DNA of 64,000 nucleotides from Escherichia coli (GTDB lineage Bacteria > Pseudomonadota > Gammaproteobacteria > Enterobacterales > Enterobacteriaceae). The stretch is taken from assembly GCF_050320075.1 (NCBI RefSeq), contig NZ_CP190018.1. One strand, given 5' to 3'. Each line of letters opens with the position of its first letter. Within the stretch, counting starts at the first letter, position 1. The notes under the pieces were generated by a model. That model saw only the letters and a program-made list of their open reading frames with translations, was not told the origin of the DNA and did not search any database. This document shows positions 26,184-63,366 of the stretch, piece by piece. A program made the position numbers and the translations under genes.

Positions 26184-26296
26184 ATGTATTCATTTCTATT
26201 CACTCTACACCATATTTTTCGGCGGTACAGGTGACGGTATTACCTTAAAGGTATACTCTCATACCGTCATGAAAATGGTTTCTATACGGGTGAATT

Positions 26297-27547
26297 GTGC
26301 TTACCGATACAAAATTAAAAAACCTCAAGCCGCAGGACAAACTGTACAAGGTCTCCGATCGTGACGGGCTGTATGTAGCTGTGCTTACGTCAGGCACGGT
26401 CTCATTTCGTTATGACTACCGTATCAACGGTCGCCGCGAAACACTGGTAATCGGGCAGTATGGGCGTGACGGTATCAGCCTGGCAGAAGCGCGGGAAGAA
26501 CTGATTGCTGCAAAGAAGCTGCTTAAAGCAGGCCAGTCACCGGCTGCGGCTAAACGTGACGGTATCAAAAAGATTCGTGGTGCCGAAACGTTTGCGGTAC
26601 ATACCGACAGTTATATGAAACACGTCATCCTGGCTGAAAGTACCCGCGCAATGAAGCAGGCAGTGATCGACCGTGACATACTTCCGGTTCTTGGCAACAA
26701 AATGATGGCTGAAATTACCACATCGATGGTTCGTGATTTGTGTGACCGGATTGTCGAACGCGGTGGCCGGGCAACAGCAGTGCAGGCCAGGGAGATCATC
26801 AGCAGCGTATACCATCACGCCAATGACCGTGGTCATGGTTTGTTTAATCCTGCGGCTGACATTAAGCCTTCGTCTATCGCCATATTTAAACCACGAGAGC
26901 GAACACTGACACCAGAAGAAATTGGCCTGTTCTTCCGCACGTTGGATGCCATTGGTGCTATGGGCACTATGAAAATGGCTTTAAAACTGGTGCTTATCAC
27001 TATGGTTCGTAAGGGCGAATTCACCAATGCAACGTGGGATGAAATAGATTTTAAAAAATGGACATGGACAATTCCTTCAGACCGCATGAAGGGAAGCCGG
27101 GCGCATGTTATTTACCTGCCTAAACAGGCTCAGGATATATTGGTCGGGTTGCAGATGTGCGCTGGTGGAAGTGAATATCTGGTTCCTGGTCGTTACAATT
27201 TCCGGAAGCCATTATCTAATGCCGCGCTGAACTCTCTGATCGACAGAACGGTGAAAATAATAAATGAAGATGGTGAGCATATTCAGGATTTCACCGTACA
27301 CGATATGCGCCGTACAGCCAGTACGTTGTTGCATGAGGCTGGTTATCCTTCAGACTGGATTGAAAAGGCTCTGGCACATGAGCAGAAAGGTGTGCGCGCC
27401 GTATATAACAAAGCGGAATACGCCAGACAGCGCGCCTACATGTTGCAGCAGTGGGCCGATATGATAGATTCCTGGATTAACGGGGAGCATACGGATCTGA
27501 TTCCGTTCTCCCCGTCGAAGTTTGAGAAGTGGATGGCGAGGGAATAA
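26297..27547 (+). CDS. int: tyrosine integrase (P4-type, arm-binding N-terminal domain)
   Basis: 416-aa ORF; N-terminus TDTKLKNLKPQDKLYKVSDRDGLYVAV; catalytic HxxR (HDMRRT) and C-terminal Tyr region; lies at the prophage-host junction. Confidence 0.9.
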   Translation: MLTDTKLKNLKPQDKLYKVSDRDGLYVAVLTSGTVSFRYDYRINGRRETLVIGQYGRDGISLAEAREELIAAKKLLKAGQSPAAAKRDGIKKIRGAETFAVHTDSYMKHVILAESTRAMKQAVIDRDILPVLGNKMMAEITTSMVRDLCDRIVERGGRATAVQAREIISSVYHHANDRGHGLFNPAADIKPSSIAIFKPRERTLTPEEIGLFFRTLDAIGAMGTMKMALKLVLITMVRKGEFTNATWDEIDFKKWTWTIPSDRMKGSRAHVIYLPKQAQDILVGLQMCAGGSEYLVPGRYNFRKPLSNAALNSLIDRTVKIINEDGEHIQDFTVHDMRRTASTLLHEAGYPSDWIEKALAHEQKGVRAVYNKAEYARQRAYMLQQWADMIDSWINGEHTDLIPFSPSKFEKWMARE

Positions 27548-27550
27548 CGT

Positions 27551-27745
27551 TTAATTATTCTGCTGATTTTCTTCCATCTCGGCTTCTGCTGCCAGTGATT
27601 CAATTTTATCTGTGAATATTGCTGACAGTGTTGCAAATTCAGCATCAGTGACAGCGGGAATTGGAACAAACCTGATCCCGCTGTGTGCAAGCATGTTTGC
27701 AGTTTCAAGGCATTTCCTTAAATCTGCTGGTGATGCCCTGTTCAT
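27551..27745 (-). CDS. hypothetical small phage protein (64 aa)
   Basis: ATG overlaps the stop of the upstream methyltransferase gene (ATGA), consistent with translational coupling. Confidence 0.45.
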   Translation of the reverse strand: MNRASPADLRKCLETANMLAHSGIRFVPIPAVTDAEFATLSAIFTDKIESLAAEAEMEENQQNN

Positions 27746-28404
27746 GCTGCACGCTCCCGCCCCTGGTTGTCTGTTGGTGACAGCGGAGCATTGCTGAATG
27801 CATTTGTTAATCTGGCAATATCCAACGCGTATCCAGGGTGTAGTTGCACTGCCGGGTCTTCGCACTGATTACCCCAAACATCGAAACCATGAGACGACTG
27901 GCGGGCGAACAGTTCAATGCGAGAAACATCGCCTAACAATTGCACAAGTTTTTCACGAACGATATCTGGTTTTCTTGAATGCTCAAGCCGCGGTGCGGTA
28001 AATGACTGAACGATCCCTGCATTAATGCGCGTAGGTAGTTTTCCCTTTACTGCAAACAGGCAATCTTCACTATTGGCGCGAGTCATGTGACCCATACCCA
28101 TAACCAGTTTATCTGGTTGTCGACTACCACATTTTATCCACGTGAATCCCTTCATGGTCATCAGACGGAATCCCCAGGCCTCAACAACTTTTAGTGCTTC
28201 GAGTGGTTGTGTTGGCACCCACCACATGGCCAACAGACAGTTTTCATCGGCCAAATCCCACACAGGAAGGCGGCAGATATCCAGCACACTCATAACCGGA
28301 TATTTAAAACCGGCACCGCGATTACCATCTGCGGCTTTGTCCCGGTATACCCAGGGTGGATCTGCATAGATTAGTGTGTATTTCTTAGTCATAAACCACC
28401 CCAC
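27742..28404 (-). CDS. MT-A70-like DNA N6-adenine methyltransferase
   Basis: Protein begins ...MTKKYTLIYADPPWVY; DPPW is the catalytic motif of MT-A70/N6-adenine methyltransferases; start may be the second Met (28392). Confidence 0.8.
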   Translation of the reverse strand: MGWFMTKKYTLIYADPPWVYRDKAADGNRGAGFKYPVMSVLDICRLPVWDLADENCLLAMWWVPTQPLEALKVVEAWGFRLMTMKGFTWIKCGSRQPDKLVMGMGHMTRANSEDCLFAVKGKLPTRINAGIVQSFTAPRLEHSRKPDIVREKLVQLLGDVSRIELFARQSSHGFDVWGNQCEDPAVQLHPGYALDIARLTNAFSNAPLSPTDNQGRERAA

Positions 28405-28684
28405 AACATCCTATGCCGCTATAGTCGCCACGGCGAAGGCCGTTACCTTTTGTGATACATTGGTCCCTGCGAACCGCGATCCTTGCACGCTCAACATCAC
28501 CAGAAGCAACATCCATACACTGAAGCCAAAGGTGAGCGGCAATGCGGAACTGCCCTTTTTTCTCTCTTTCAATCGCGCGTTTTTCGATCTCTATCGCCGC
28601 AGGAGTAACGGCGACAATCTTTGACGGACTGCGCATTGAAACCTTGTTCATGTGATATTTTTCAAGTCGGCTTAACTTTCTCAC
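28385..28684 (-). CDS. hypothetical small protein, possibly a small regulator; start uncertain
   Basis: Minus-strand ORF in the early leftward operon, ending just inside the methyltransferase start. Confidence 0.4.
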   Translation of the reverse strand: MRKLSRLEKYHMNKVSMRSPSKIVAVTPAAIEIEKRAIEREKKGQFRIAAHLWLQCMDVASGDVERARIAVRRDQCITKGNGLRRGDYSGIGCCGVVYD

Positions 28685-28793
28685 TTAATCCAACCCTCTC
28701 TGAAAATTAATGCCAGCAGATAAAGCCATGCTGAAACAGAGGCCAGGAATAAGTACCATCCTGACCATTTGCTCCAGTGCCTTAGCAGCACAC

Positions 28794-29042
28794 TCATGCC
28801 GCGTTGCTCACGGGACGATATACACGTTGCTGAACAGGAGGTTTTTTACCCTGGAACTCTGCCGGGCTTGCTGCCTGACGTTCATCAAGCCAACGCTCAA
28901 CTTCATCACGGTTCCATGCGCAGCGTTTATCGGTGATATACCAGCGTTTAGGAAATTCCCCTGCGCGCTCCATACGGTCGATAGTGCTCCATGACAGTGG
29001 AACCACCGCCAGGAGTTCCTTCTTACCTAATGCACCTTTCAT
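28794..29042 (-). CDS. AlpA-like HTH regulator / excisionase family protein
   Basis: 82-aa protein with the pattern ELLAVVPLSWSTIDRMERAGEFPKRWYI...WNRDEVERWL typical of the AlpA prophage regulator fold. Confidence 0.6.
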   Translation of the reverse strand: MKGALGKKELLAVVPLSWSTIDRMERAGEFPKRWYITDKRCAWNRDEVERWLDERQAASPAEFQGKKPPVQQRVYRPVSNAA

Positions 29043-29091
29043 AAATACCTCTCTTGGTTGCAGTGCGGCGCGCGTGGCGCCGCGGTGGTGG

Positions 29092-30033
29092 TTACATAGA
29101 TGTTTCGTTTAATTCTTCCCGACGAACGCTGTAAACGTCGGTGGCTTTTGCCAGCAGTTCGTCATCATCTGAAAGTTTTTGTGCAATGTATTTGTAAGCC
29201 TTATCCAGTTCGGAGACAGTGCTGTAATTCATCGCTGCGCTGGTAAAGGCCATCAGCATTTCTTCTGGATCACGGCTGTCCGATTTACGCGTTTGCTCAT
29301 CAGGCTTTTTCGCTGGTTTAGCGTTGATCAGACTGTTCATTCCCGCAGCAGTGGTCGTTTGCGGAGTAATGTCTCGCTCAACGCGCGGTGCCGTTTCCTG
29401 TAATTCGTCTGGGGTGTAGACGCCCATGATTACGTCAGGACAGTGCAGGCGAGACCAGCGTTTTGTCGCAAGGTATGCGAGTTGTTGTTTCGGATCACTG
29501 GCCCAAAGTGTGGAGTTTCTTACCTGTGCTTGAGACAGCATTAACTCAAGCACTCGAGGTTGATCCTCGCCCTTCATGGTTGCCCATACGCGAACACCGC
29601 AGCCTTCTTCGTCTTTTAGAGTCCAGCCTGGTGCGATATATGGATTGCCGTTTTTGGATGTTTTCTCAACAAACTTACCGATCACGCGTTCCCACGGCCC
29701 GAACCACTCGTAGTTGATGCGATCTTTTGTTGGCGACATCGTTGAGATAACTGCGTTTACTAATTGGGCTTCATAACCTAGCGTGCCGTTCACAACATGG
29801 GTTTTCTGAGCCACGGCAAACGGGTTCATTCCCCACTGCGCAGCCTGCATTGCCACGGCCATGCAATCAGCTGGTTTCCCGGCGAGGTGCGCCGGTACCG
29901 TTACGCGGCTTTGCGCCATTACCTCGGCGAATTTCATCAGTTGGTTCAAGCCGTCTGGGCTGAAAATAGTTGCAGCAGTTCCAGCGATTGCTGTGTCTAC
30001 TGGTGCGTTGATGTTTGCGATGTCGTTGCTCAT
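29092..30033 (-). CDS. RecT-family single-strand annealing recombinase
   Basis: ORF 29092-30060; start placed at the Met directly following the stop of the upstream exonuclease gene; RecT-like sequence (...GTLGYEAQLVNAVISTMSP...). Confidence 0.75.
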   Translation of the reverse strand: MSNDIANINAPVDTAIAGTAATIFSPDGLNQLMKFAEVMAQSRVTVPAHLAGKPADCMAVAMQAAQWGMNPFAVAQKTHVVNGTLGYEAQLVNAVISTMSPTKDRINYEWFGPWERVIGKFVEKTSKNGNPYIAPGWTLKDEEGCGVRVWATMKGEDQPRVLELMLSQAQVRNSTLWASDPKQQLAYLATKRWSRLHCPDVIMGVYTPDELQETAPRVERDITPQTTTAAGMNSLINAKPAKKPDEQTRKSDSRDPEEMLMAFTSAAMNYSTVSELDKAYKYIAQKLSDDDELLAKATDVYSVRREELNETSM

Positions 30034-30851
30034 ATGTACATATCCTGTTTGCGTGCCCACTCAGGGCGTTTAATGATTTCCACACCGCCCCATTCATCAT
30101 TGATGCGGCATTCGTGATAGGTATTCAGATCCCGGCGGAACAGAGCGTGCCCGGCATCGACATCCTGCGCATCCAGCTCGAACACGCGTACCGGATACCG
30201 ACCACAATCAATGCTTTCGCTCACGGCAAGAAAGAAAAAACCATGCGGCTGACCAGTAACCCTCATTGCGCCTTCGCGGTACATTGCGTCCTGCACGTGG
30301 TAGCGGAATTCCTCGATGTGGCGTGCAAAACGGTCCATATCTGCAACCTTTTTCACGTCGACGATCACGTTGTGCTCGTTCAGCCATTTGTCTGGACGAA
30401 TTCGGCACAACTCCCCCGTCTCTTCATCGTTCCAGTACATTGATGCTTCGCAGTAACCAGGTGCTTCCAGCATCCAGCGTGCCGCCGGGTGAGCCATTGC
30501 GCTATCACGCATCAGCTCCAGTTTCCGCCACTGCTCGGCATCAAGTACCGTAATCCCCATATCCGCCACATCACGAAGAAATTCCTCTTCGTCAGCTTTA
30601 CCTTGTTTCGTCCGACGATCGAATTTCGGTGAAACAATGAAGCGTTTGTCGAACTCTCCAGGCTCCAGAAGCAGACAGTGCAATGCGGTTCCCATATCCA
30701 GTGCAGACTTTTTCTCTTCGTCTTCTGGTGCTGCCTGAACCCATTTAAGAAGCGCCGGATTCTTGGCAACCATGTCCAGTTGCGACTTACTCACGCCGTC
30801 ACCGGCGTGGTAGTCTTCGTTGCTGATGTCGAAATAAATTCCCGGTTTCAT
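30030..30851 (-). CDS. PD-(D/E)XK exonuclease (RecE/YqaJ-like recombination exonuclease)
   Basis: 273-aa protein MKPGIYFDISNEDYHAGDGVSKSQLD...; pairs with the downstream RecT as a RecET-like module. Confidence 0.7.
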   Translation of the reverse strand: MKPGIYFDISNEDYHAGDGVSKSQLDMVAKNPALLKWVQAAPEDEEKKSALDMGTALHCLLLEPGEFDKRFIVSPKFDRRTKQGKADEEEFLRDVADMGITVLDAEQWRKLELMRDSAMAHPAARWMLEAPGYCEASMYWNDEETGELCRIRPDKWLNEHNVIVDVKKVADMDRFARHIEEFRYHVQDAMYREGAMRVTGQPHGFFFLAVSESIDCGRYPVRVFELDAQDVDAGHALFRRDLNTYHECRINDEWGGVEIIKRPEWARKQDMYI

Positions 30852-31147
30852 GCCGCGTCCCTCTGTCCATCAAGCTGATCCGCCAGATCCCAGCGGGCGA
30901 TAATTGCCATTGCCTCTCGCCGATAGGCATCCATCAGTTCTTCGAACTCAGGGCTGTCTTTAGCAGCCTCCAGTACTTCCTGGCGAACGCCTTTAACTGT
31001 TACAACGTCGAAAGTTGATGCCAGTTGATGAAGCCGGATACTCTCAATCAGTTCAACTTGTCGGTCATATAGCTGTTCTGACAGACGGTAGTCCTTGTCG
31101 AATGCCAGCATGATTTTTTGAAGATTTTTCTGCTGATTAACGTTCAT
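30848..31147 (-). CDS. hypothetical phage early protein
   Basis: ORF 30848-31162; the ATG at 31147 sits 2 nt after the stop of the upstream small ORF. Confidence 0.45.
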   Translation of the reverse strand: MNVNQQKNLQKIMLAFDKDYRLSEQLYDRQVELIESIRLHQLASTFDVVTVKGVRQEVLEAAKDSPEFEELMDAYRREAMAIIARWDLADQLDGQRDAA

Positions 31148-31149
31148 TA

Positions 31150-31302
31150 TCAGCCCTCCCATATCTCGTTATCGTTGGCCACATCGCGAGCTTCTTTGCT
31201 GACGAAAGCCCACTTAATGCCTTCCTGTAAGGTGCGGAACTTCCAGCTCATGAATCCGCATGCAGTAACGCAGTACCAACCGTTGATGATTTTCCACTGC
31301 AT
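31150..31302 (-). CDS. small Cys/Trp-rich ORF (50 aa), first gene of the leftward early operon
   Basis: Manually translated: MQWKIINGWYCVTACGFMSWKFRTLQEGIKWAFVSKEARDVANDNEIWEG; GAGG ribosome-binding site upstream; below the ORF-track length cutoff. Confidence 0.35.
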   Translation of the reverse strand: MQWKIINGWYCVTACGFMSWKFRTLQEGIKWAFVSKEARDVANDNEIWEG

Positions 31303-31409
31303 AACTTGTTACCTCGGTCTGTTACCGTTGAGGTAATAATTATGCGTATATGGTTTGATGTCAATAGATATGAGTTAAAAAAATTACCCGTTAGGTAATC
31401 GAATAGGCA

Positions 31410-31435
31410 ATAAAAAAGCCGCCATAAGGCGGCTT
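31410..31435 (-). terminator. intrinsic terminator after the repressor gene
   Basis: Hairpin gccgccataaggcggc followed on the minus strand by a U-run. Confidence 0.6.
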
Positions 31436-31455
31436 ACTTACTGAAAAATATGGTT

Positions 31456-32040
31456 TTATTGTTTGTTTTTTTCGTTCTGGTTGATGACAAATTCAATGTA
31501 ACTTTCGATCTTTGCTTTCTCGGTTTCGGGTAACAATGCGTAGCGCGAGCGATCATAGTTGATGGTCGCAGGGTCGTGCGGGTGAATCAGTAATTCATAG
31601 CCGTGACGCCCGAATGCGGATGCAACATTCTCCAGGGTGGAAATGGAAACGCTGACCTCATTGTTTAACAGGCGGCTGATTGTCACCTGGGCTACGCCGG
31701 ATGCGCGGTGAAGTTTTCCCTGTGTTGAAAGGTCGCGGCTTTCGCTCATCCAGCGTTCCAGGTTGTGAGCCGCCAGCTGGCCAATGTCGCTTGGGCCGAC
31801 AGGCTGAAAACCTTCCTGAGAAAGCGAGCGATCGATATCAAGCCAGTTACGGGGTTTATTGGCGGCAGCTTCAATTTTTCGCGCAACCTGATCGCCGATA
31901 ACCTTCTTACCAAGAGCCCAGCGGTTTACCAGATTTGCCTGAGTTCCAAGTTTTTCAGCCATCCGCGTCTGAACACCATTGAATTCACGGTCGATCAAGT
32001 CGTTGAGATTTTGCCTGCGGACGTCCTGGATACTTTTCAT
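31456..32040 (-). CDS. prophage repressor candidate (CI-like), tandem HTH domains, no recognisable S24 peptidase domain
   Basis: 194-aa protein; HTH-like segments QTRMAEKLGTQANLVNRWALGKK and LHRASGVAQVTISRLLNNEVSVSISTLENVASAFG; divergent from a Cro-like gene across an operator-rich gap. Confidence 0.65.
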   Translation of the reverse strand: MKSIQDVRRQNLNDLIDREFNGVQTRMAEKLGTQANLVNRWALGKKVIGDQVARKIEAAANKPRNWLDIDRSLSQEGFQPVGPSDIGQLAAHNLERWMSESRDLSTQGKLHRASGVAQVTISRLLNNEVSVSISTLENVASAFGRHGYELLIHPHDPATINYDRSRYALLPETEKAKIESYIEFVINQNEKNKQ

Positions 32041-32194
32041 TTTCTGGAAAATCGCCTCATATATGAATCAGTAGATGATTCAATTTAAAGCAATATTACC
32101 CAACAGGTAAATGCACCTCATGGGTAACTATCCTTGATTTTTGTTACCTTATGGGTGAATATTTATTATCTGAAATAAATATCAGGCAATAGCT
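32041..32194. promoter_or_regulatory. divergent repressor/cro control region with three palindromic operator-like sites
   Basis: TTACC-caaca-GGTAA (32096-32110), gCACC-tcatg-GGTAA (32113-32127), TTACC-ttatg-GGTGA (32144-32158) between the divergent genes. Confidence 0.55.
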
Positions 32195-32425
32195 ATGAGC
32201 GATAACGGACATTTCGATTTCAAAAAGCACTGGCTTGCACTTACTCCGGATGAGCGTGAAGCCTTCGCACAGGAAGCCGGAACGACGAGTCACTATATCC
32301 AGACTCACTTAACAGGTAAGCGCAAAATGCCAGGTAAAGTATTGATGAATGGGCTTTTTAAAGCCTGTAAAACAAGACAATGGCTGCGCTCAAAAGCAGA
32401 ACTGGCATACTTCTTCTACTCATGA
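32195..32425 (+). CDS. Cro/CII-like small HTH regulator
   Basis: 76-aa ORF directly across the operator region from the repressor; HTH-like segment AQEAGTTSHYIQTHLTGKRK. Confidence 0.5.
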   Translation: MSDNGHFDFKKHWLALTPDEREAFAQEAGTTSHYIQTHLTGKRKMPGKVLMNGLFKACKTRQWLRSKAELAYFFYS

Positions 32426-32575
32426 TATCCAGCTACAACCCTCTGTAGACCGCCACCCGGCGGTCTTTTCATATCTATTCGTACCTCAAAGGTAATAAAA
32501 AACCAAATATGGTTGATATTTTTTTTGTGTCAGCACAAAATGACCGTAATCCCAATACTAATAACAGGGCTTACC

Positions 32576-32776
32576 ATGGAAATCATTACACGTATTGATG
32601 CCGCAAAGCGCGGACTTAAACGCTACTACACCGGAAAAACATGTAAGCACGGACATGACAGTGAACGCTGGGTTTACAACGGACACTGTGTTGAGTGCAC
32701 CATGGAATCAAACCGTCGTATCAGGGCAGAGATTAAGCAGATCATGATTAATTCCTCCCCACAACATTCAAGCTGA
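32576..32776 (+). CDS. hypothetical zinc-ribbon protein
   Basis: ORF 32513-32776 starts with a TTG; ATG 32576 gives MEIITRIDAAKRG... with a CKHGH...CVEC metal-binding pattern. Confidence 0.4.
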   Translation: MEIITRIDAAKRGLKRYYTGKTCKHGHDSERWVYNGHCVECTMESNRRIRAEIKQIMINSSPQHSS

Positions 32777-34389: not shown

Positions 34390-34506
34390 TACCAGCGCGA
34401 TAGCGCATTTTTTTACGTCTATATGATTACCTGGAAGGTAATAAAATGTTCTAATCTCTATTGATTTCATGTCTTATGTGGTTTTTAATTACCTAAGGGG
34501 TAAATC

Positions 34507-38070: not shown

Positions 38071-38113
38071 GCATGGTACTATTACCACAACGGTAACAAT
38101 TACCATGGTGGTT

Positions 38114-38710
38114 ATGATGCCTGCTGAACCTAAAACCTATAAACGCAAATCAACGCAATTTAAGCCACTAACCGCAATGCAGGAGGCTTATTGCCAGTCA
38201 TACATCAAAACGCCTGAAAACCAGACTCAGGCAGCGATTAACGCAGGATTCTCCCCAAATACAGCGGCAGTTAAAGCCAGTGTCATGATGCGCGATGAAC
38301 GCATTCAAAAACGGATTGCCGAGTTGATGGAGGAGCGCAACAAACGAATGCGCGTCAGTGCCGATTACGTTCTCATGCGCCTGGTGGAGATCGACCAGAT
38401 GGACGTGATTGATATCCTCAATGACGATGGGAGCCTTAAGCCAATCCGCGAGTGGCCGAAAATCTGGCGCACTACGCTTAGTGGCTTTGATCTGTCATCG
38501 ACCATCATGAACATGAACGAGGATTCGATAGAGACAATTCTCAAAAAAATTAAATGGCCTGACAAGGTGAAGAACCTCGAACTGATTGGTAAGCACGTCG
38601 ACGTCAATGCATTCAAAGAACGCCTGGATGTTAATGTGAATGTGACAATTGCTGATCGCATAGCGGCAGCCAGGAAGCGACTCAAAGAACGTCAGGATGG
38701 TAATCAGTGA
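38114..38710 (+). CDS. terminase small subunit
   Basis: ORF 38036-38710; start placed at ATG 38114/38117 (MPAEPKTYKRKS...); directly upstream of, and overlapping, the large terminase gene (GTGA). Confidence 0.6.
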   Translation: MMPAEPKTYKRKSTQFKPLTAMQEAYCQSYIKTPENQTQAAINAGFSPNTAAVKASVMMRDERIQKRIAELMEERNKRMRVSADYVLMRLVEIDQMDVIDILNDDGSLKPIREWPKIWRTTLSGFDLSSTIMNMNEDSIETILKKIKWPDKVKNLELIGKHVDVNAFKERLDVNVNVTIADRIAAARKRLKERQDGNQ

Positions 38711-40924: not shown

Positions 40925-41352
40925 AACGCTGAGAGCACTTAGCCTGTTAAGTGCGCCACACTTTGTCGCAGCTCCATAAATGCTCTCATCGTTGTACCCT
41001 CGTCTCTTCCGAGGCGTCACACCGAATCGCCGGGATGGTGAATCCCCGTGCGCGGAATAAAACCGCTCGACTTGCACATTCCGGCTACCTGGTTCGTTTG
41101 CCCGAGCAAGGGAGGGTGCCCCTTAAACGTATCCAGACCGCTATCGGCGCATGTGCCATACGCCGTACTGCTCAAAATAAAAGCTCACTCCACCTGTTCA
41201 ATTTAACGACAAGCCAGTCAGGTTAATAACCGGAATGAACCATTTACTTACCTGAAAGGTAATAATTCGTGCGTTAAATGTCAACTACCTACGATAAATA
41301 AATCATATGTGGTTAAATTGGTAATAATTTAATTGCGTACGGAGTCATTGAT

Positions 41353-43546: not shown

Positions 43547-43549
43547 TCA

Positions 43550-52843: not shown

Positions 52844-52844
52844 C

Positions 52845-54542: not shown

Positions 54543-57091
54543 TGGCAGCAAACGAATTTTTGACGCAGTGCGAGCGCAGTGTAAATGCTGCCGCTGGTCG
54601 CGAGCTTTCTTCCGATGAGATGGAGTCGCTGGTGCGTGACATGAACGACACCACTAGGCGAATTCTGGCGACCAATGAGGCGCTGTCTCTGGAAGAGGCC
54701 GCGATGCGCGCAGCGGAAGAACTGAGCAATGCCGATATGCTGGCAAAACAGATTGAGTCCCGCAATAAGGCAATCAACACCCGTATTGCCGCACAACGAC
54801 TTAGAGAGCTTCGTACTATCTGGAAAGACCGCCCGGATATCGGGCTTGAAGCAATGCTGGTTGGCCGCAACGATGCGCGTACCGGCGCCCGCCGGTCGGT
54901 ATCTTCGGAGGTGGCGCAACTGCGCGGCAAGTATCATTCCGGTATCAACTACGATTTTGACCGTGCCGGGCTGGTGCAATTCATCGCCAGCGGCAGCAAT
55001 GACAGGGAAATTGCCGATGCAATGTGGCGCATAGGGCGCGGGCAGTCAACTGACGGTATGACAAGGCAATCCGTAAGCGCTGCACAAATCATCATGAAAT
55101 GGCAGGAAACTGCGCACATTGATGAGAACCGCGCCGGGGCATGGATACGCAAAGAGCCGGGCTATATAGTGCGCCAGTCACACGACATCATGAAGATCCG
55201 CGCCGCAGGTTATGAAGCATGGCGAAATGCTATTCTCCCGCGCCTTGATGAGCGCACTTTTGACGGCGTGGCTGACCGCGAGCAGTTCATGCGTAACATT
55301 TATAACGGGCTGGCTTCCGGCGTGCATCTTACATCTGAAAAGCCCGATTGGATGAATGGCTTTAAGGGATCGGCGAACGCAGCTAAACGCGCCAGCCAAG
55401 AGCGAATTTTGCACTTCAAAGATGGTATCTCGTGGCACGAGTACAACCAGCAATTCGGCACCGGCAGCCTGCGAGAGGCGCTGTTTGGTGGCTTAAACAG
55501 CGCTGCCCGCACAACGGGCATGATGCGCGTACTGGGCACTAACCCACAGAACATGTTTAAGTACCTGACGGACACCATTGCTGAAGATATCAGCAAATCC
55601 GGAAGACCGGCAGCGTTGGCTGACTACATGACGAAGGTGCGTCGCATTAACCGTACCGTAATGCCGCAGGTTGACGGCTCGCTAAATATTCCTGGCAGCG
55701 TAGGCTGGGCCAATGCGTCGGCGGCTGTACGCGGCTGGTTGCGTATGAGCCAGCTTGGTGGCGCGGTAATCTCATCGTTTAACGACGTGCCTATCGCCGC
55801 TACCGAGATGCGCTACCAAGGGCAGAATTTTATGCAGGCGTTGCTTGGTGCTATGAGAGGCCGCTTCACGCGTTACAACAGCGCGGAGCAGAAAGAGATC
55901 CTTTCCTCTATCGGAGTTTATTCCGACTCCATGACGCAGGAAATCATCCGGCGTATATCTGGTGATGACACGCTGAATGGAAAACTTGGTCGCGCGCAGC
56001 AGCTTTTCTTTAAGTACAACCTCATGAACTTCTGGACCGAGAGCGGTCGCAACAGCAACGCCATGATGATAACCAACTGGCTTGCAAAGAATGCTGACCA
56101 GCCTCATGCGCGGCTACCGGAAGACCTGCGACGCGTGCTGGATCTGCACGGTATTGGCGAACGTGAGTGGGAAATTTTTCGCAACATGGACATGGCCGAT
56201 AGCGAAGGTCGTAAGTTCATGACGACCAGCGGCATCCGCGGCGTGCCTGACGAAGTGATTGCCGGTTATGTAGAGAGTAAGGGGATCAAGCCAACGCAGC
56301 GCGCTATCGCTGACGCACGCGATCAATTGGAAGGGCAGTTGCGCGGCTACATCCTTGACCGCCTGAATATCGCCATGTCAGAGCCTGGCGATCGCACGCA
56401 GGCGTTTATGAAGATGGGCACGGTGCCAGGAACGGTGGCTGGGGAAGCAATACGATTCGCTGGTCAGTACAAATCGTTCACTGCAAGCTTCATGCAGAAC
56501 GTACTAGGACGCGAAGTATTCGGGCGTGGTTATATTCCTGCTGGGCTTGGTGAGTCGAAAACCGGATCGCTGACGAATGCTCTGCTGCGTAACGGGAAGG
56601 GGGCTTTCCTTGGTGCTGCAAACCTCTTTGTCTGGGCGACTATGTTTGGTTATATCTCCATGCAGTCAAAACTCATGCTGAAAGGGCAAACACCACGCCC
56701 GGCAGATGCCAAGACGTTTCTCGCAGCCGCATCTCAGGGGGGCGGTCTTGGCATCTTGGGTGACTTCATGTTTGGCGAGGTCAACCGCATGGGGGCCGGG
56801 CCGGTTACGTCGCTAATGGGACCGGCAGCATCGAACGCTGACAGCATTATCACGCTGCTCCAGCAGACCACGAGAGGGGATGCAGATTTGGGTGACTGGT
56901 ATCGCACGGCACTTGACAATACGCCATTCCTCAACGTGTTCTGGCTTCGTACGGCGATGAATGGTTTAATATTGAACCGGATACAAGATGCCCTTGACCC
57001 AGGCTCTCTTGAGCGTTATCAGCGCCGTGTTGAGCGTGAGCAGGGTAACGAATTTCTGATCCCACCATCGCAGTTCATGCTAGGGAAGTAA
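54542..57091 (+). CDS. internal virion/ejection protein (large)
   Basis: ORF 54539-57091; ATG 54542 overlaps the upstream stop. Confidence 0.45.
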   Translation: MAANEFLTQCERSVNAAAGRELSSDEMESLVRDMNDTTRRILATNEALSLEEAAMRAAEELSNADMLAKQIESRNKAINTRIAAQRLRELRTIWKDRPDIGLEAMLVGRNDARTGARRSVSSEVAQLRGKYHSGINYDFDRAGLVQFIASGSNDREIADAMWRIGRGQSTDGMTRQSVSAAQIIMKWQETAHIDENRAGAWIRKEPGYIVRQSHDIMKIRAAGYEAWRNAILPRLDERTFDGVADREQFMRNIYNGLASGVHLTSEKPDWMNGFKGSANAAKRASQERILHFKDGISWHEYNQQFGTGSLREALFGGLNSAARTTGMMRVLGTNPQNMFKYLTDTIAEDISKSGRPAALADYMTKVRRINRTVMPQVDGSLNIPGSVGWANASAAVRGWLRMSQLGGAVISSFNDVPIAATEMRYQGQNFMQALLGAMRGRFTRYNSAEQKEILSSIGVYSDSMTQEIIRRISGDDTLNGKLGRAQQLFFKYNLMNFWTESGRNSNAMMITNWLAKNADQPHARLPEDLRRVLDLHGIGEREWEIFRNMDMADSEGRKFMTTSGIRGVPDEVIAGYVESKGIKPTQRAIADARDQLEGQLRGYILDRLNIAMSEPGDRTQAFMKMGTVPGTVAGEAIRFAGQYKSFTASFMQNVLGREVFGRGYIPAGLGESKTGSLTNALLRNGKGAFLGAANLFVWATMFGYISMQSKLMLKGQTPRPADAKTFLAAASQGGGLGILGDFMFGEVNRMGAGPVTSLMGPAASNADSIITLLQQTTRGDADLGDWYRTALDNTPFLNVFWLRTAMNGLILNRIQDALDPGSLERYQRRVEREQGNEFLIPPSQFMLGK

Positions 57092-57092
57092 T

Positions 57093-57464
57093 ATGAACAG
57101 AATTATATTAATGATTATTCTTATGCTTTTAGCTGTAAAATCTTTTGCAGATACTACCTCACCGTTAATGATTCAGCCTAAAAATGGGGAAACACTGGAG
57201 GACTCTAAAAAGCATACAATGGAATATTTTGGATGTATAAAAGGGCAGGCCGTAAAATACGCTAAGACAGGAGAAAGTGTTGATTCTATATCCAAAGCTT
57301 CGGTTGTGTCATGCGAGTCGTACATACAAAAGATTGCTGAATCAAATATATACTATTTAAATTCCTCTCAAGACGGTAAGCGGAAATTTATTGGAAGGCT
57401 TAAATCAGATGGTGAAAATTTAGCAACGAAATTTGCTATGGATGAAAAGCTAAAAAATAAATAG
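57093..57464 (+). CDS. secreted protein of unknown function (moron)
   Basis: 123-aa ORF with N-terminal signal peptide MNRIILMIILMLLAVKSFA; conspicuously AT-rich coding sequence. Confidence 0.5.
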   Translation: MNRIILMIILMLLAVKSFADTTSPLMIQPKNGETLEDSKKHTMEYFGCIKGQAVKYAKTGESVDSISKASVVSCESYIQKIAESNIYYLNSSQDGKRKFIGRLKSDGENLATKFAMDEKLKNK

Positions 57465-57471
57465 GTGACAC

Positions 57472-57768
57472 ATGCAAGCGATAGGATTCATTGTTTATAT
57501 CGTCGTTGGTCTTTTTCAGTTGGCAGCAATTATGGCTGGGCTTGAATCATGGTGGGGATTGCACTGGATAATTGCAGCCCCCATTGCTTTCATCGTGAGC
57601 TATATTCCATTTGTTGGAGCGATTGTTGGTATGGTTGGTGCTGTGGATGTATGGCGGTGGGAGTGGTGGCAGGCTGGCCTTCTCTTCTTTGGTGGGATCA
57701 TCTTTGCTATTGTCTGCGGTGGAATGTCATCATTTTTCGAACGGCTATCATTCAGAAAAGGAACGTGA
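57472..57768 (+). CDS. small inner-membrane protein (moron)
   Basis: 98-aa ORF with three hydrophobic helices; AGGTGA SD; stop codon inside a GTGACATGTCAC palindrome. Confidence 0.5.
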   Translation: MQAIGFIVYIVVGLFQLAAIMAGLESWWGLHWIIAAPIAFIVSYIPFVGAIVGMVGAVDVWRWEWWQAGLLFFGGIIFAIVCGGMSSFFERLSFRKGT

Positions 57769-57800
57769 CATGTCACAGGCCGCTTTCGCGGCCTTGTTTT

Positions 57801-57959
57801 TAACGAATGCCACCGCCACCCGGGCGGGAATCCGCAGAACGCCCACCGCAGCGGGAGCCGTCAGCGGCAGTATCGCTGTCGTGCTGACAACGACCGGCAA
57901 AGGCCTGAGTTGAAGCTACCAGAGACAACAAAACGAACAGTGCAGCAAATGCTTTTTTC
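57801..57959 (-). CDS. small secreted Cys-containing peptide (about 52 aa)
   Basis: Manual translation MKKAFAALFVLLSLVASTQAFAGRCQHDSDTAADGSRCGG...; signal peptide; terminator hairpin ggccgcgaaagcggcc right after the stop. Confidence 0.35.
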
Positions 57960-58030
57960 ATTGTGAAATTTCCATCTATAAGCCACCTCAATGTGGCGTC
58001 AATGAGTGTAGCACTGACTTTTGTTTCGTC

Positions 58031-58054
58031 CACAAAAAAGCCCGCAGCGCGGGC
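58031..58054 (-). terminator. intrinsic terminator after the DUF2335-like gene
   Basis: Hairpin gcccgcagcgcgggc followed on the minus strand by a U-run. Confidence 0.55.
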
Positions 58055-58603
58055 TTACTTTTCTTCAGGTTTGTTGTCTTCAGATTTCTTCTTGATGCTT
58101 GGTTTTTGTCTAAGAACGAAAATACCAGCCACTGCAACAACTGTACCGATCACTGTGCCAGCTAGAACTTCATGACCTGTTAAACCTAATAATGTTGCAC
58201 AAGCTACTGTAAAAATAGTTGCACTCAGGCCAAACCACTGCCCACGTTTATCTCTATTAATAGCCCCGTCAAGTGCCTTTTCCTCCATTTTCTGGCGGTG
58301 AGCAAACTCCTTCTCCGTCAGCTGGAAGATGCGTTCGGGGGCATCAGGTAAAATATCCTGATACCCGCGAAGCAGATAGGGGGGAGGAAGCGGACCCTGA
58401 AACGCATGGTGAGCGACAACTATCTCCTGAATTTCAGGGCGATCAAGAACTCTTGTGAAGGCATCTGGGTGTTGAATGATCTCGTTACTTAGCCCTTCCT
58501 CAACTTCCTCGAACTCAGTTTCTTCGTTATCACTTGGTTGCCCAATAGATTTTTGCATATTTGTCGAAGGACATTCCTTTAGCTTCTGGTTTTCCTCTTG
58601 CAT
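58055..58603 (-). CDS. membrane protein, DUF2335-like
   Basis: 182-aa protein: acidic N-terminus, PLPPPYLLRGY...ERIFQLTEKEFAHRQKMEEKALD...RGQWFG motif, two C-terminal transmembrane helices. Confidence 0.5.
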   Translation of the reverse strand: MQEENQKLKECPSTNMQKSIGQPSDNEETEFEEVEEGLSNEIIQHPDAFTRVLDRPEIQEIVVAHHAFQGPLPPPYLLRGYQDILPDAPERIFQLTEKEFAHRQKMEEKALDGAINRDKRGQWFGLSATIFTVACATLLGLTGHEVLAGTVIGTVVAVAGIFVLRQKPSIKKKSEDNKPEEK

Positions 58604-58871
58604 TTGAGTTTTTCCCTGTCACTATTGCCCATTTTCCGCCAGCAGGCGCTGCAATTTTTTTTCCGTTCTTTACTATATATTCAGCATAAACACGATTTTC
58701 TGACCGTCTGAGATCGTCTCCGACCATATTCATGTCTCTTGATATAACTTTGACGACAGAGTCTCGGTTTAAAGCCTTGGCATAGTTGGAGCCAGGAACG
58801 ATACCCAAAGGGGTGCCAGACTCTATAGCCAGCTCCTTGACATATCTTCTGCTCATATGAACCTCAACCAA
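58530..58871 (-). CDS. hypothetical protein; overlaps the start of the downstream DUF2335-like gene in another frame
   Basis: 113-aa ORF; real extent uncertain because of the 74-nt out-of-frame overlap. Confidence 0.35.
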   Translation of the reverse strand: MVEVHMSRRYVKELAIESGTPLGIVPGSNYAKALNRDSVVKVISRDMNMVGDDLRRSENRVYAEYIVKNGKKIAAPAGGKWAIVTGKNSNARGKPEAKGMSFDKYAKIYWATK

Positions 58872-58977
58872 TCGACTTTACCAATCGGGTAATTTTAAAC
58901 ATGAGTATAATGCTTTTAACTGCAACGAGTGTAAACAATTATTGATAATTGTAGGCACATCCCTGTGCCGCCGCCCG

Positions 58978-59664
58978 TCAGAAGAACCCTGCTTTGTCGT
59001 TGATGTACTCCGCGTGCGTCTGGATATCACGCAGGCATTTACTCACACCGACGATGTAGCAGAACATGGTGGTCAACTCCGCCGCCGCGCCCGATACGTC
59101 GTGCCCGTCGTCCTGTAACTGGTTCAGCAAATTCATCAGCAGTGAGTTCTCCGTCAGGCCGAGAACACCAGACGGCGAATGAATCAGGCTACGGTAGCCG
59201 GGCTTCAGTGGGGCGCTGTAGGTTTTGTTCTCTATCTTCATTGCCTGCATCACTGCTGATGCTGTGGCGTTGGCTACCTGGTCGGCAACCATCTTTATGC
59301 GTTCTTCCTGCGGGAGCGAGTTTTTAATGTAACTTCCGGTGCGGCGGATCTGAGGAAGAACCTCACCTGTAACCCATTTGCGAAAGCGGTAGGGGATAGT
59401 GCCTGGTGTTACTGCATCGCGGCAGCGGAGGATCAGTGTGTAGAGGCCTGACTCGTTGATAATATTGGTTTCGCCTTGACGGCCTAAGTTAAATTTAGCC
59501 CTTTCATCATCATCAAGAGATTTTATTGACATAGTGGGGTTTGTCAGTTGAAGAGCTTTAATAACGTCTTTGGCAACAAACCAAGGATTTCCATCAATAA
59601 CAATGGCTCGAATGGTTGCTTCTGATTCAAAATGAAAAACAGATGGGGTTACGTTAGCAGTCAT
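58978..59664 (-). CDS. antirepressor (Bro-N domain protein)
   Basis: ORF 58978-59817; start placed at the ATG giving MTANVTPSVFHFESEATIRAIVIDGNPWFVAKDVIKALQL... (Bro-N signature); AAGGTGA SD. Confidence 0.7.
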   Translation of the reverse strand: MTANVTPSVFHFESEATIRAIVIDGNPWFVAKDVIKALQLTNPTMSIKSLDDDERAKFNLGRQGETNIINESGLYTLILRCRDAVTPGTIPYRFRKWVTGEVLPQIRRTGSYIKNSLPQEERIKMVADQVANATASAVMQAMKIENKTYSAPLKPGYRSLIHSPSGVLGLTENSLLMNLLNQLQDDGHDVSGAAAELTTMFCYIVGVSKCLRDIQTHAEYINDKAGFF

Positions 59665-59817
59665 AGTGATCACCTTTGTAGTTAGGTTAATCACCACTAC
59701 CGACGCCAATCGGTTGGTGGTGAACTGTGCAGGGTTGGCGTAACCGGCTACAAAGGACCCGGCGCACCTTTCGGTGCCCCCACACAGCCCACCATAGAAT
59801 AGGTGCGCTTTACACAT

Positions 59818-59838
59818 AAAAAAAACCGCTTATGCGGC
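59818..59838 (-). terminator. intrinsic terminator after the 90-aa gene
   Basis: Hairpin ccgcataagcgg followed on the minus strand by eight U. Confidence 0.5.
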
Positions 59839-59977
59839 ATATGTGCCTCTGTAGTAACTCGGGACGCCAATCCCGGCACTGGATTTTGCCAGTGCCCGAT
59901 TACTATGGCACAAGAGGAGTGCGTTGTAAATTTACCGCAAAGGTAAATATAAGCACTCCACTTGGCAATTGCAAACC

Positions 59978-60250
59978 TTATCTGGTTTGTTTTCGTAATT
60001 GTTCGGCACAATAGTCGAGATGTGTTTGCAGATCCCGCATAGACATCTGTGAGCTGGTGACGTAGTTAATCAGTGCAGTCAGTTCGGCAAGTGGGCCATC
60101 GACATTAAATCCATCCTTATCGAGATCCCGGAGTAATTTCATCAAGTGCGATCCCTCCACCAGTGACCTGACGCCTCCCGGCGTGTGAATCCTTTCGGTA
60201 AATCCGTCTTCCAGTGGATAGTGATACTGCTGCATCTTAATCTTCTCCAT
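59978..60250 (-). CDS. small protein similar to the C-terminal region of the adjacent antirepressor
   Basis: 90-aa ORF; LMKLLRDLDKDGFNVDGPLAELTALINYV...RDLQTHLDY parallels LMNLLNQLQDDGHDVSGAAAELTTMFCYI...RDIQTHAEY in the Bro protein. Confidence 0.45.
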   Translation of the reverse strand: MEKIKMQQYHYPLEDGFTERIHTPGGVRSLVEGSHLMKLLRDLDKDGFNVDGPLAELTALINYVTSSQMSMRDLQTHLDYCAEQLRKQTR

Positions 60251-60431
60251 GCAATAACTGTATATTTATACAGTATCAAATAATTTGTTTGCTATCCAGC
60301 ACGTTTTGCAAATTACCTGAAAGGTAATATCTATTCATATTCACAGTCTTTCTATCCATATATGGTTTTTTGGGTAATAGAATAACCAGATATGCGGCGC
60401 AACGGGTGCTGCGACTATCTGGAGATTTAAC

Positions 60432-63275
60432 ATGACGGTCTCAACCGAAGTTGACCACAACGAATACACAGGTAACGGCGTTACGACATCGTTTCCGTAT
60501 ACTTTTCGAATTTTCAGAAAATCAGACCTGGTTGTTCAGGTGTCTGACCTGAACGGGAACGTAACAGAATTGGTTCTGGATACCGGTTATACGGTAACTG
60601 GGGCGGGCACTTATAGTGGCGGTTCAGTGGTTCTGCCGTCTCCGCTTGCTGCTGGCTGGCGAATTACGATAGATCGTGTGCTTGATGTAGTGCAGGAGAC
60701 AGACCTCCGCAATCAGGGAAAGTTTTTCCCCGAAGTGCATGAAGATGCCTTTGACTACCTGACGATGCTGATCCAGCAATGTTTTGGGTGGTTCAGACGT
60801 GCATTGATGAAGCCCTCTCTGCTTGCAAAATATTACGATGCAAAGCAAAACAGAATTTCTAACCTTGCAGATCCATCACTTGAGCAGGACGCTGTAAATA
60901 ATCGCTCAATGCGTAATTATGTCGATGCTGCAATCGCCGGAGTTGTTGGTGGTTTTGGTTGGTTTATTCAGTATGGTTCTGGGGCAGTATATCGCACCTT
61001 CCAGGACAAGATGCGAGATGAAATAAATGTTCATGATTATGGTGCTATAGGTGATGGAAATTATCACCCGCTTTCTGAACGTTATTCATCGTTGGCTGCT
61101 GCGCAGCAACAATATCCATTTGCTACTTCCCTTGGTCAGTCTATTGACTGGGCTGCAATACAGGCAGCGATCAATGCCTCACAAGGCAGAAAGGTAAAAT
61201 TATTAGCAAAAACATACATTTCTACTGATGGATTCACTGGCGTTGATGGTCTTTGTTTAATTGGTGAAGGTGCTACCCCTTTTTACCTTAACTTTCAGGA
61301 CATTCCATACACCAACAATGGTGGTACTGACATTCTTTTCTATGGTACAGGCCAAAAGAACAGAAGCATTTATGGTATTTCGGATATGCAGCCATCCGGT
61401 GGTGTGAGGACAGATCCTGATTTAGGCGTGACTCATGCATTAACCAATATGACGAATGGAGACGCCAGCACTTCGGCGGCTGCAACCCCTCGAGCAGTAA
61501 GCGCTGGCTTATACCTTGAGCATTGCAAAGGCTGGCAAATTGAGGGAATCCGATTTGCTCCATATTTTAACGGGGTCGAATCATATACAGACCAGACTAA
61601 CTTAGGGCTGGCTGATGAATGGGATATCGGAATTCTCATCAATAGTTCTTATGATGGTGTAATGCGCGATGTTCGCGCGGTTGGGCACTGGCGAGTTGCT
61701 GGCCTGGCTGTGTTTGCAGGCGAAAATCCTTTCAACACAGGCGCGTCATCTTCATGTGAACGAAACAGATTTTTTTCCTGTCAGTTTAATGGAAAGTCTG
61801 GCGTTCTTATTCGCGGCGGGGATGCCTACCGGTGTACAGCAGTAACAGCTGACACTGTCGAAATTCCATGGCACGATTCAAACCCGTTCCGGCATACCGG
61901 TGGGGTATTTCTTGGGGCCTTTGGTGGCGCAACCTCTGCAAGCTATACCTATACCAGCGCAACGGTTACCGGTGATAAGCTGACGCTCCACGGAGTAAGC
62001 CCTAACCCTTTATCGAATGGTATGACAACATCTTCAGGGGTGTATACCGGTAGAAGTTATGGGTTCCAGGGTACGCAATTCTTTGGTTGTTACTTTGGCG
62101 GCCTTGAGCATCAGACTAACCGAGTGGCTACAGACCCGGCGCTTACCTCACCATTCCCTACGTCGTCAAAACCTGTCGAAATTTCAGGTGTTCCGGCAGG
62201 AAATATCAGGTTCTATGGTTGTACGCACATGACCCGGGAAGACTGTGTGTGGATGATCCATAACGCCTCAAATATCTACGACTTCGGAGGCTATTTTGAG
62301 GCCAAGCGAGCGATCACTGCTACTGGCGGCGGCTCGCGCATGGTAGCCATCGGTAATTGGCCTGATTACACCCCGACTGCAGAATCACCATATCCGTTTG
62401 GTACGGTCAGTAACATAAATATGTTCGGTTCGCAGGCTCTTAATTTCGTTGATATGTACCCTGTAGTTGCCCGTTCTACAGGTGTAACGCGCTTTACCTC
62501 CGGGATGTGGGATTGTAAGACCCTCTATAGCTCCGAGGCATTTCAGGATCTTGCTGACACCAACAACTATGTAATAAAGGGTTTACGAAACGAAAGCATA
62601 AGGTTCGAGGACGGAGCCGGCGGCCATCTTATGACCATGCAGAATATTGGCAATCTCCTGCTTGGTAAGCGCGCCAGATTTAACACCTCAACAGAGGATC
62701 GTTATCAGTTCTATCGACTCGATGGAACAACCATTTTCTTATCCCTCGATGGCACGATGTCCACGCCAGTAATGACTCTGGATGGAAACTTTGTCCCTGC
62801 AGTTGCCAATACAAGGTTGGTCGGAACTGCGGCCAAGCCCTTCTCGGGAGGTAATACCCAGACAGCTTATAACATCACTTCTGACCGGAACTACAAAACT
62901 GACTTTGGTGAAATTCCTGACGCCGTTCTGGATGCATGGGAATTGGTGCAGTATTCACAATATAAACTCAGGGATGCAGTTGCGTTGAAGGGGGAAGGCG
63001 CCAGATTACATGTCGGTGTTGTTGCACAGCAGGTGAAAGAGGCATTTGAATCAGTAGGGGTCGATCCTTTTGCATATGGCGTACTGTGCTACGACGAATG
63101 GTCTGGTCAGGAAGAAGTTATTGAGGACGGTGTCATTACGCAGCAAAAAGTGGAAGCAGGGAAGCGTTACAGTGTGCGCTACGAAGAGGCATATGCAATA
63201 GAGTCCGCCTTGCTTCGGAGAACTCATACCAGATTGGAGCAGCGCTTATCTTCTCTTGAAGAAAAATCAAAATAG
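60432..63275 (+). CDS. tailspike/tail fibre protein with C-terminal S74 intramolecular chaperone domain
   Basis: 947-aa ORF; conserved podovirus N-terminal region; C-terminal ...NITSDRNYKTDF... autoproteolysis motif (Ser/Lys dyad) typical of Peptidase_S74 chaperone domains. Confidence 0.8.
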   Translation: MTVSTEVDHNEYTGNGVTTSFPYTFRIFRKSDLVVQVSDLNGNVTELVLDTGYTVTGAGTYSGGSVVLPSPLAAGWRITIDRVLDVVQETDLRNQGKFFPEVHEDAFDYLTMLIQQCFGWFRRALMKPSLLAKYYDAKQNRISNLADPSLEQDAVNNRSMRNYVDAAIAGVVGGFGWFIQYGSGAVYRTFQDKMRDEINVHDYGAIGDGNYHPLSERYSSLAAAQQQYPFATSLGQSIDWAAIQAAINASQGRKVKLLAKTYISTDGFTGVDGLCLIGEGATPFYLNFQDIPYTNNGGTDILFYGTGQKNRSIYGISDMQPSGGVRTDPDLGVTHALTNMTNGDASTSAAATPRAVSAGLYLEHCKGWQIEGIRFAPYFNGVESYTDQTNLGLADEWDIGILINSSYDGVMRDVRAVGHWRVAGLAVFAGENPFNTGASSSCERNRFFSCQFNGKSGVLIRGGDAYRCTAVTADTVEIPWHDSNPFRHTGGVFLGAFGGATSASYTYTSATVTGDKLTLHGVSPNPLSNGMTTSSGVYTGRSYGFQGTQFFGCYFGGLEHQTNRVATDPALTSPFPTSSKPVEISGVPAGNIRFYGCTHMTREDCVWMIHNASNIYDFGGYFEAKRAITATGGGSRMVAIGNWPDYTPTAESPYPFGTVSNINMFGSQALNFVDMYPVVARSTGVTRFTSGMWDCKTLYSSEAFQDLADTNNYVIKGLRNESIRFEDGAGGHLMTMQNIGNLLLGKRARFNTSTEDRYQFYRLDGTTIFLSLDGTMSTPVMTLDGNFVPAVANTRLVGTAAKPFSGGNTQTAYNITSDRNYKTDFGEIPDAVLDAWELVQYSQYKLRDAVALKGEGARLHVGVVAQQVKEAFESVGVDPFAYGVLCYDEWSGQEEVIEDGVITQQKVEAGKRYSVRYEEAYAIESALLRRTHTRLEQRLSSLEEKSK

Positions 63276-63366
63276 GGGATGGTAATAATTATCCGTATAT
63301 GGTTTATTGTGTATGATGAACTCACCAACTAAGGGGGTTCTTTATGCACAATAAACGGTGGTCATC

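Follow-up and report, generated by a model that had tools for sequence, protein, structure and literature searches.

Dispersed TTACC-N5-GGTAA palindromes as probable operators of the Rep repressor in a phiV10-type prophage of Escherichia coli

The closest described counterpart of the regulatory system considered here is the Rep-Ant system of the Salmonella phages ε15 and SPC32H. The SPC32H Rep protein acts on palindromic DNA sites as a tetramer (PMC9638917) and consists of an N-terminal DNA-binding, a middle dimerisation and a C-terminal tetramerisation domain, the last of a fold that has been linked to DNA looping; the structural mechanism of Rep repression "has not been extensively characterized" (PMC9986798). 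In vB_EcoP_ZX5, over-expression of the repressor lowered transcription of the endolysin and holin genes by more than 99.9%, the operator not being defined in that work (PMC9782041). Here we analyse a 64-kb stretch of the E. coli contig NZ_CP190018.1 (the window), which contains a prophage with the palindrome TTACC-N5-GGTAA dispersed over its intergenic gaps. With a probability of about 0.85, these sites are the operators of the prophage's own Rep protein, in a single-repressor, many-operator regulon silencing each operon directly.

The system in the window is a member of the ε15/SPC32H Rep-Ant system: every feature that could be tested here was found, i.e. a homologous repressor, an Ant protein 87% identical to that of SPC32H whose gene is preceded by a LexA box, and the identical palindrome at the same gaps. 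It departs from ε15 and SPC32H in carrying the phiV10 allele of Rep and a degenerate second operator (GCACC) in the rep-cro gap, in the operator of the lysis promoter, which has been cut to a half-site by a swap of the tailspike module, and in an extra C4/isrK antirepressor module with an operator of its own. The prophage region as a whole is 98% identical to phiV10-type Escherichia phages (genus Uetakevirus), is integrated adjoining guaA and has the gene order of phiV10. Of 5,426 complete E. coli genomes, 540 carry its immunity region (31300-32500, comprising rep, operators and a cro-like gene) with at least 95% identity, nearly always as a single chromosomal copy.

Distribution and conservation of the palindrome

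Ten perfect copies of TTACC-N5-GGTAA occur in the window against 0.03 expected from dinucleotide shuffles, none out of 100 of which reached ten, and 15 copies are present at no more than one mismatch (1.0 expected). All perfect copies and 14 of these 15 lie within the prophage, from 26240 to 60313; the remaining one is a one-mismatch match in host DNA at 10855, the only host copy. Matches with two mismatches are about as dense in host as in phage DNA, near background, and the signal therefore resides in the near-perfect set and is not a compositional effect. The 15 prophage sites listed in Table 1 (the two-mismatch site at 32113 included) fall without exception in intergenic gaps, which according to our own map of open reading frames (ORFs) amount to 2,614 bp or 6.9% of the prophage. 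They are spread over 10 such gaps, and no site at up to one mismatch is found in the left operon (26255-31321) or in the 17.6-kb structural operon (41263-58877). Changing the spacing to TTACC-N4-GGTAA gave only chance-level matches in the window. The dispersal of near-perfect palindromes over the prophage gaps that a first-pass annotation of the window described is thus reproduced (14 copies at up to one mismatch, all intergenic), and a check set beforehand, namely whether the motif is as frequent in host or coding DNA, returned an excess in prophage gaps only. Its coordinates were otherwise right, including the recognition of 63281 as a half-site only, but it counted nine perfect copies instead of ten, having overlooked that at 58878, and assigned the copy at 59932 to the tailspike upstream region when it actually lies past the 3' end of the small ant gene, ahead of a leftward antirepressor module.

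Six genomes, 236 kb in total, contain 57 perfect copies, with the extended consensus ATTACC-WNAAA-GGTAAT. All 57 are palindromic and the A-rich bias is confined to the spacer and flanks, which are the only parts that can have an orientation; the single orientation formerly ascribed to the copies does not apply to the motif itself. Being self-complementary, and with a copy (63281) at a mosaic junction, the motif could be imagined to work as a hairpin in RNA or DNA, for instance in termination, processing or recombination. The probability of this is close to nil: the predicted folding is weak (-3.5 to -4.2 kcal/mol, 10-26 of 200 shuffles folding as well), no T-run follows the copies, the half-site is invariant, only 3 of 141 two-mismatch matches are compensatory, at least two of them in coding DNA, and the one-mismatch variants are conserved without any compensating change.

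Copies of the motif are found at the same gaps in phiV10, SPC32H, ε15, Kp4865-1, BUCT554 and Tyrion. When seven genomes were aligned over the replication-module gap and the rep-cro gap the half-sites proved invariant, with variation in N5 and most of the flanks. Imperfect variants are also kept: GGTAT before int in every genome, thus in all relatives examined, GTACC downstream of the cro terminator and, in the second of the terS sites, GGTTA, which argues for selection on graded affinity. Both the GenBank and the RefSeq record of ε15 carry seven protein_bind features labelled "repressor", all of them TTACC-N5-GGTAA (features 12-27, 2931-2947, 19895-19911, 32479-32632 and 35906-35922); they are placed upstream of terS, gp3 (portal operon), the tailspike gene and the RuvC-like gene, and the other three belong to the PL region. 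Our scan of ε15 retrieved 11 perfect and four one-mismatch sites, 7 of these 15 being listed in the record. Among those without annotation are three sites in the repressor-gp39 gap, one each before the lysis genes and int, and the core operator at the RuvC-gene promoter; a one-mismatch site inside a gene, at 11654, is probably a chance match. No annotation of these sites is found in the phiV10, Tyrion, SPC32H and BUCT554 records, and the motif string had no match in a full-text literature search. The novelty implied by the first-pass annotation finds no support and is low, because the dispersed layout is already annotated, and was thus recognised, in the type phage ε15.

The 194-aa Rep of the window matches the SPC32H Rep crystal-structure sequence 5D50 over its full length (E = 4e-42), is 42% identical to the Rep proteins of ε15 and SPC32H, and is 100% identical to the translated repressor gene region of vB_EcoP_ZX5. 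Pfam yielded a weak helix-turn-helix (HTH) match at its N-terminus and a clearer central one, with no peptidase-domain match reported. In an alignment with six Rep proteins overall identity ranges from 42% to 78% and the N-terminal motif (S/Q)(A/Q)NLVNRW is kept; conservation of this NLVNRW helix motif in divergent Reps would account for the half-site common to heterologous Reps. On the basis of the literature, the N-terminal HTH domains of the Rep tetramer would contact two half-sites one helical turn apart. The link between the half-site and this domain is independently backed by the cI protein of the unrelated Pseudomonas siphovirus PseuP_224, whose N-terminal domain is 39% identical to that of Rep, with the HTH residues conserved; its C-terminal domain is different and longer. 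PseuP_224 has the same TTACC and GGTAA half-sites, but separated by N4 instead of N5 and located only around cI (19922-19974 and 20797-20836; five sites, three perfect, one with one mismatch and one with two). Together with the chance-level occurrence of the N4 variant in the window, this indicates that the half-site follows the DNA-binding domain and that dispersal is a property of Uetakevirus genomes. The earlier suggestion of a genome-wide operator set for the tandem-HTH protein encoded at 31456-32040 therefore finds support in homology to SPC32H Rep, in the ε15 annotation and in the invariance of the half-sites in seven genomes. It could be argued that the main ligand is instead another phage protein, such as the Cro-like product of 32195-32425 or the regulator encoded before terS (37648-37995), or that such a protein shares the sites with Rep, as Cro and CI share operators in lambdoid phages; several small regulators are indeed encoded in the prophage. 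However, even the unrelated Pseudomonas siphovirus shows the half-site together with a Rep-like N-terminal domain, and a lytic-phase repressor acting on late-gene promoters would be counter-productive. We consider this alternative improbable, with shared use of the sites by the Cro-like protein conceivable.

Geometry of the sites relative to promoter-like elements

All promoters named in this work are consensus matches, and several of their arrangements with operators are repeated in all genomes. The core operators at PL, at the DUF1064/RuvC-gene promoter, at terS, at 58878 and at 59932 have the last T of the -10 hexamer as their outer T, spanning approximately -7 to +8, a stretch that bound Rep would cover. 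Over six genomes, 34 of the 92 sites at up to one mismatch (37%) adjoin a -10/-35 or an extended -10 match, which is true of only 2.4% of control positions that share their end bases; the TGn motif and the -10 element at terS are kept in all six genomes scored (five besides the window). The core sites at PL and at the DUF1064/RuvC-gene promoter each have a partner exactly 62 bp upstream, a distance kept in 13 of 14 cases over seven genomes and of 63 bp in the remaining case, and one tetramer could hold both members of such a pair and thereby enclose the whole promoter. The three sites in the rep-cro gap are spaced 17 and 31 bp, the two terS operators are 18 bp apart, and the site at 32481 lies about 60 bp upstream of TTGATA-17-CAAAAT (32513-32541), a promoter candidate with a core half-site in degenerate form. 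Rep would then find operators at almost every gap that bears a promoter: PL, rep-cro (three sites), two internal early-right promoters, the terminase and portal gaps, two moron/antirepressor promoters, the ant-tailspike gap and the region upstream of int.

The same contacts with -10-like hexamers, in copies preceding early, packaging, structural and tailspike genes, would also be compatible with the palindrome being a promoter element, or an activator site, of a phage-specific promoter class, as the first-pass annotation had proposed. Against this proposal speak the several positions that the motif takes with respect to -35 and -10: from -7 to +8 at PL, the DUF1064-gene promoter and terS, within the spacer of PR, some 62 bp upstream in the pairs and past the start in the case of terS operator 2. 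Furthermore, three tandem copies in the rep-cro gap are what is expected of operators, in PseuP_224, where the N-terminal domain of cI is distantly homologous to that of Rep, these half-sites surround cI only, and ε15 labels the sites as repressor sites. A promoter class is thus very improbable, even more so than a different ligand.

The stoperators of mycobacteriophage L5, bound by gp71, are asymmetric and orientation-dependent, lie within transcription units and stop elongation; many of them are outside the immunity region and some are near late genes. Many sites beyond the immunity region, some of them near late genes, are likewise found in the prophage, and the first-pass annotation had drawn this analogy. 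Yet the sites described here are symmetric, they are absent from long operons (none in the left operon or within the structural operon at 41.3-58.9 kb), and most of them come after a terminator, either overlapping or flanking promoter-like elements. A general mechanism by which the repressor, sitting inside transcription units, blocks elongating RNA polymerase therefore seems unlikely. Some sites are without a convincing promoter, among them 26240 in the guaA-int gap and 38100 downstream of the terS start site, and a role as roadblocks against read-through is possible for these two.

Some observations weigh against an operator function of the whole set. No recognisable promoter-like element adjoins the int site at 26240; the operators of the portal, tailspike and lysis promoters lie 50-85 bp upstream of the best -10 candidate, and therefore simple occlusion does not explain repression there; and the "repressor" labels in the ε15 record may themselves be predictions only. 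Operators of Rep remain our preferred interpretation, and it is tempting to speculate that the 62-bp pairs are promoter cassettes clamped by one Rep tetramer through a small loop, in which the core operator merges with the -10 and the -35 is enclosed by a partner that lies on the same face of the helix. Every lytic operon (early, replication, packaging, head-tail, tailspike, lysis and antirepressor) would then be an independent sigma-70 unit gated by Rep, with its timing set by the number, quality and geometry of the operators rather than by a dedicated late activator or antiterminator. This extended scheme is tentative, and we would rather expect it to fail than to hold.

Several additional features were noted around these promoters. 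The PL cassette may hold a rightward promoter (31354-31398, plus strand; TTGATG-18-AAAAAT) fused to the 31384 operator and directed antisense into the 3' end of rep, which is kept in the phiV10/Tyrion/BUCT554 type and weak or absent in the ε15 type; its A-run could alternatively be an UP element for PL. The terS coding sequence annotated in phiV10 starts at position 41 and runs over both operators (phiV10 41-119; window 38036-38117), and the more likely start is the conserved ATG 2 nt after operator 2 (window 38117; position 47 in ε15). Between the terminase and portal operons a tRNA-Arg with anticodon UCU lies on the minus strand (40848-40924), overlapping the plus-strand ORF 40667-40918 (hypothetical protein p04 in phiV10); the SPC32H record has a tRNA-Arg there as well. 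A leftward PL-like promoter at 41248 was considered and rejected, its TTGACA-like hexamer being just 11 nt from the -10-like hexamer in all genomes. Directly after the tailspike stop codon, the half-site unit GGTAATAATTATCCGTATATGGTT (63276-63345) matches the right part of the operator units at PL (31332-31355) and at the post-cro promoter of Kp4865-1, and is fused to conserved sequence of the lysis promoter; in phiV10 the corresponding place is taken by a gene for an O-acetylase and a near-complete operator with one mismatch. Modules seem to have been exchanged here, with the junction falling within an operator. In the 5' leader of the lysis operon (63303-63365, plus strand), TTTATTGTG is followed about 40 nt further on, immediately after the ATG, by its complement CACAATAAA, and a long-range stem between the two could mask the start codon; in ε15 an RNase III site is annotated over the equivalent stretch.

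The ATRTGGTT box and the antirepressors

A second element, the ATRTGGTT box (ATATGGTT box), is present in seven copies in the window, all on the plus strand and in prophage gaps, where our own rough calculation predicts about 0.1. The spacings given in the first-pass annotation proved correct: the box follows the operator by 11 nt at 31348, 32507 and 63297, and by 32-44 nt at 34476, 41307 and 60360. Measured from start to start, the distance between box and operator is fixed within each region at 26, 47-50 or 59 nt. The box recurs at orthologous places in the relatives, with T.TGG.T invariant in the alignment of the replication-module gap, and some copies stand within a palindrome (AACCATATATGGTT in phiV10, CCATATATGG at 60358 in the window). 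With respect to the best -35 and -10 candidates its position differs; it overlaps the -35 at 32507, lies in the spacer beside the -10 at 34476, falls roughly between -30 and -20 in the tailspike, lysis and portal promoters, and is found in the spacer of PL in the opposite orientation. Because of this variation between promoters none of the elements that were compared by eye fits all copies, these including a -10, a -35, a sigma-54 -24/-12 element, an IHF site, a CRP half-site, the start of a short ORF and a degenerate Rep half-site. The box is real and conserved, and would be either the site of a second factor or a common remnant of duplicated promoter cassettes.

The homology of Ant, the LexA box upstream of its gene and the lack of a Pfam peptidase match in Rep point, by homology, to a switch that runs from LexA through Ant to Rep. 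Following the SPC32H model, DNA damage would remove LexA from the box at 60258 and Ant would be made; Ant would then dissociate Rep from the DNA, and all operons would be released together. The prophage contains in addition matches to the C4 antisense RNA and isrK, which sit between the 59932 operator and an ORF for a 279-aa antirepressor. The C4 match overlaps the 5' end of this ORF, whose real start codon is therefore probably further downstream. The isrK/C4/279-aa module resembles the c4-ant arrangement of the P1 immI region, here under a Rep operator.

Table 1. Coordinates of Rep, its predicted operators, candidate promoters and further regulatory features in the window
Feature	Position	Strand	Description
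rep	31456..32040	-	194 aa; N-terminal HTH DNA-binding domain and second HTH-like middle domain; SPC32H Rep homologue
Operator-like site upstream of int	26240..26254		TTACCTTAAAGGTAT, 1 mismatch; between guaA and int
PL core operator	31322..31336		outermost base coincides with the final T of the leftward -10 AATTAT
PL upstream operator	31384..31398		62 bp from core operator 31322
rep-cro gap operator 1	32096..32110		perfect
rep-cro gap operator 2	32113..32127		GCACC...GGTAA, 2 mismatches; perfect in ε15 and SPC32H
rep-cro gap operator 3	32144..32158		1 mismatch; in spacer of candidate PR
Post-cro-terminator operator	32481..32495		GTACC..., 1 mismatch
DUF1064-gene promoter, upstream operator	34427..34441		62 bp from 34489
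DUF1064-gene core operator	34489..34503		spans start-site region and Shine-Dalgarno of the 34507 gene
terS operator 1	38082-38096		fused to extended -10 promoter candidate TGgTACTAT (38074..38096, +)
terS operator 2	38100..38114		GGTTA variant; ends 2 nt before conserved ATG 38117
Portal-operon gap operator	41248..41262		between tRNA-Arg/leftward unit and portal operon
Moron operator	58878..58892		adjoins leftward -10 TAAAAT; upstream of membrane-protein moron
Antirepressor-module operator	59932..59946		adjoins leftward promoter candidate TTGCAA-17-TATATT, into isrK/C4-like RNAs and 279-aa antirepressor gene
ant-tailspike operator	60313..60327		in divergent ant-tailspike gap
GGTAA half-site	63281..63285		isolated; operator-unit remnant at mosaic junction after tailspike stop codon
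Candidate PL promoter	31336..31364	-	TTGACA-17-AATTAT; -35 kept in relatives
Candidate PR	32134-32139 (-35), 32157-32162 (-10)		-35 TTGATT, -10 GAATAT; -35 invariant
Candidate DUF1064/RuvC-gene promoter	34461..34489	+	TTGATT-17-TTTAAT; last T is the core operator's first T; -35 invariant in 7 genomes
ATGTGGTT box, portal-operon promoter region	41307..41314	+	further ATRTGGTT copies: 31348, 31448, 32507, 34476, 60360, 63297
cro-like small regulator gene	32195..32425	+	first gene of rightward early operon
ant	59978..60250	-	90-aa small antirepressor
LexA box	60258..60273		perfect, CTGTATATTTATACAG; directly upstream of ant; also in ε15, SPC32H and phiV10
C4 antisense RNA	59713-59799	-	Rfam RF01695, 79.5 bits
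isrK	59819-59895	-	Rfam RF01394, 74.2 bits
279-aa antirepressor ORF	58978-59817	-	Bro/Ant-type N-terminal and Ant-like C-terminal regions

Likeness to P1 and lambda, and significance

In its regulatory logic the prophage is closest to the C1 system of P1, and not to L5. P1 employs one repressor, C1, with many dispersed operators that overlap individual promoters, together with an antirepressor and the immI c4-ant module; its operators are asymmetric 17-mers and P1 is a plasmid prophage. The likeness consists in one repressor with 15 sites at 10 gaps with predicted promoters, and in a Rep operator preceding a C4-type RNA and an antirepressor gene. In contrast to P1, the operators are symmetric 15-17-mers and Rep is a two-domain tetramer of the HTH_3/XRE type, a comparison for which homology to C1 was not searched directly. 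The three tandem operators between the divergent repressor and cro-like genes and the operators at PL are reminiscent of lambda. Unlike lambda OL/OR, ten sites lie outside the immunity region and no Pfam peptidase match was obtained for Rep, in agreement with the first-pass opinion that this is not a classical two-operator lambdoid circuit; induction, by homology to SPC32H, would proceed through a LexA-controlled antirepressor and not through self-cleavage of the repressor.

Our findings reveal no new kind of regulation. What they add is a full list of sites for a phiV10-type E. coli prophage, the fusion of operators to the -10 as a rule, the conserved 62-bp pairing and the extra C4/antirepressor module. 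The map is of use in annotation, in the engineering of reporter phages based on phiV10 and in tests of tetrameric Rep on paired sites, and, if the 62-bp clamp were true, it would provide a defined natural substrate for the structural mechanism of Rep repression. The prophage type is common, and the operator map explains how a whole 39-kb phage can be silenced by one small repressor and released by a LexA-controlled antirepressor.

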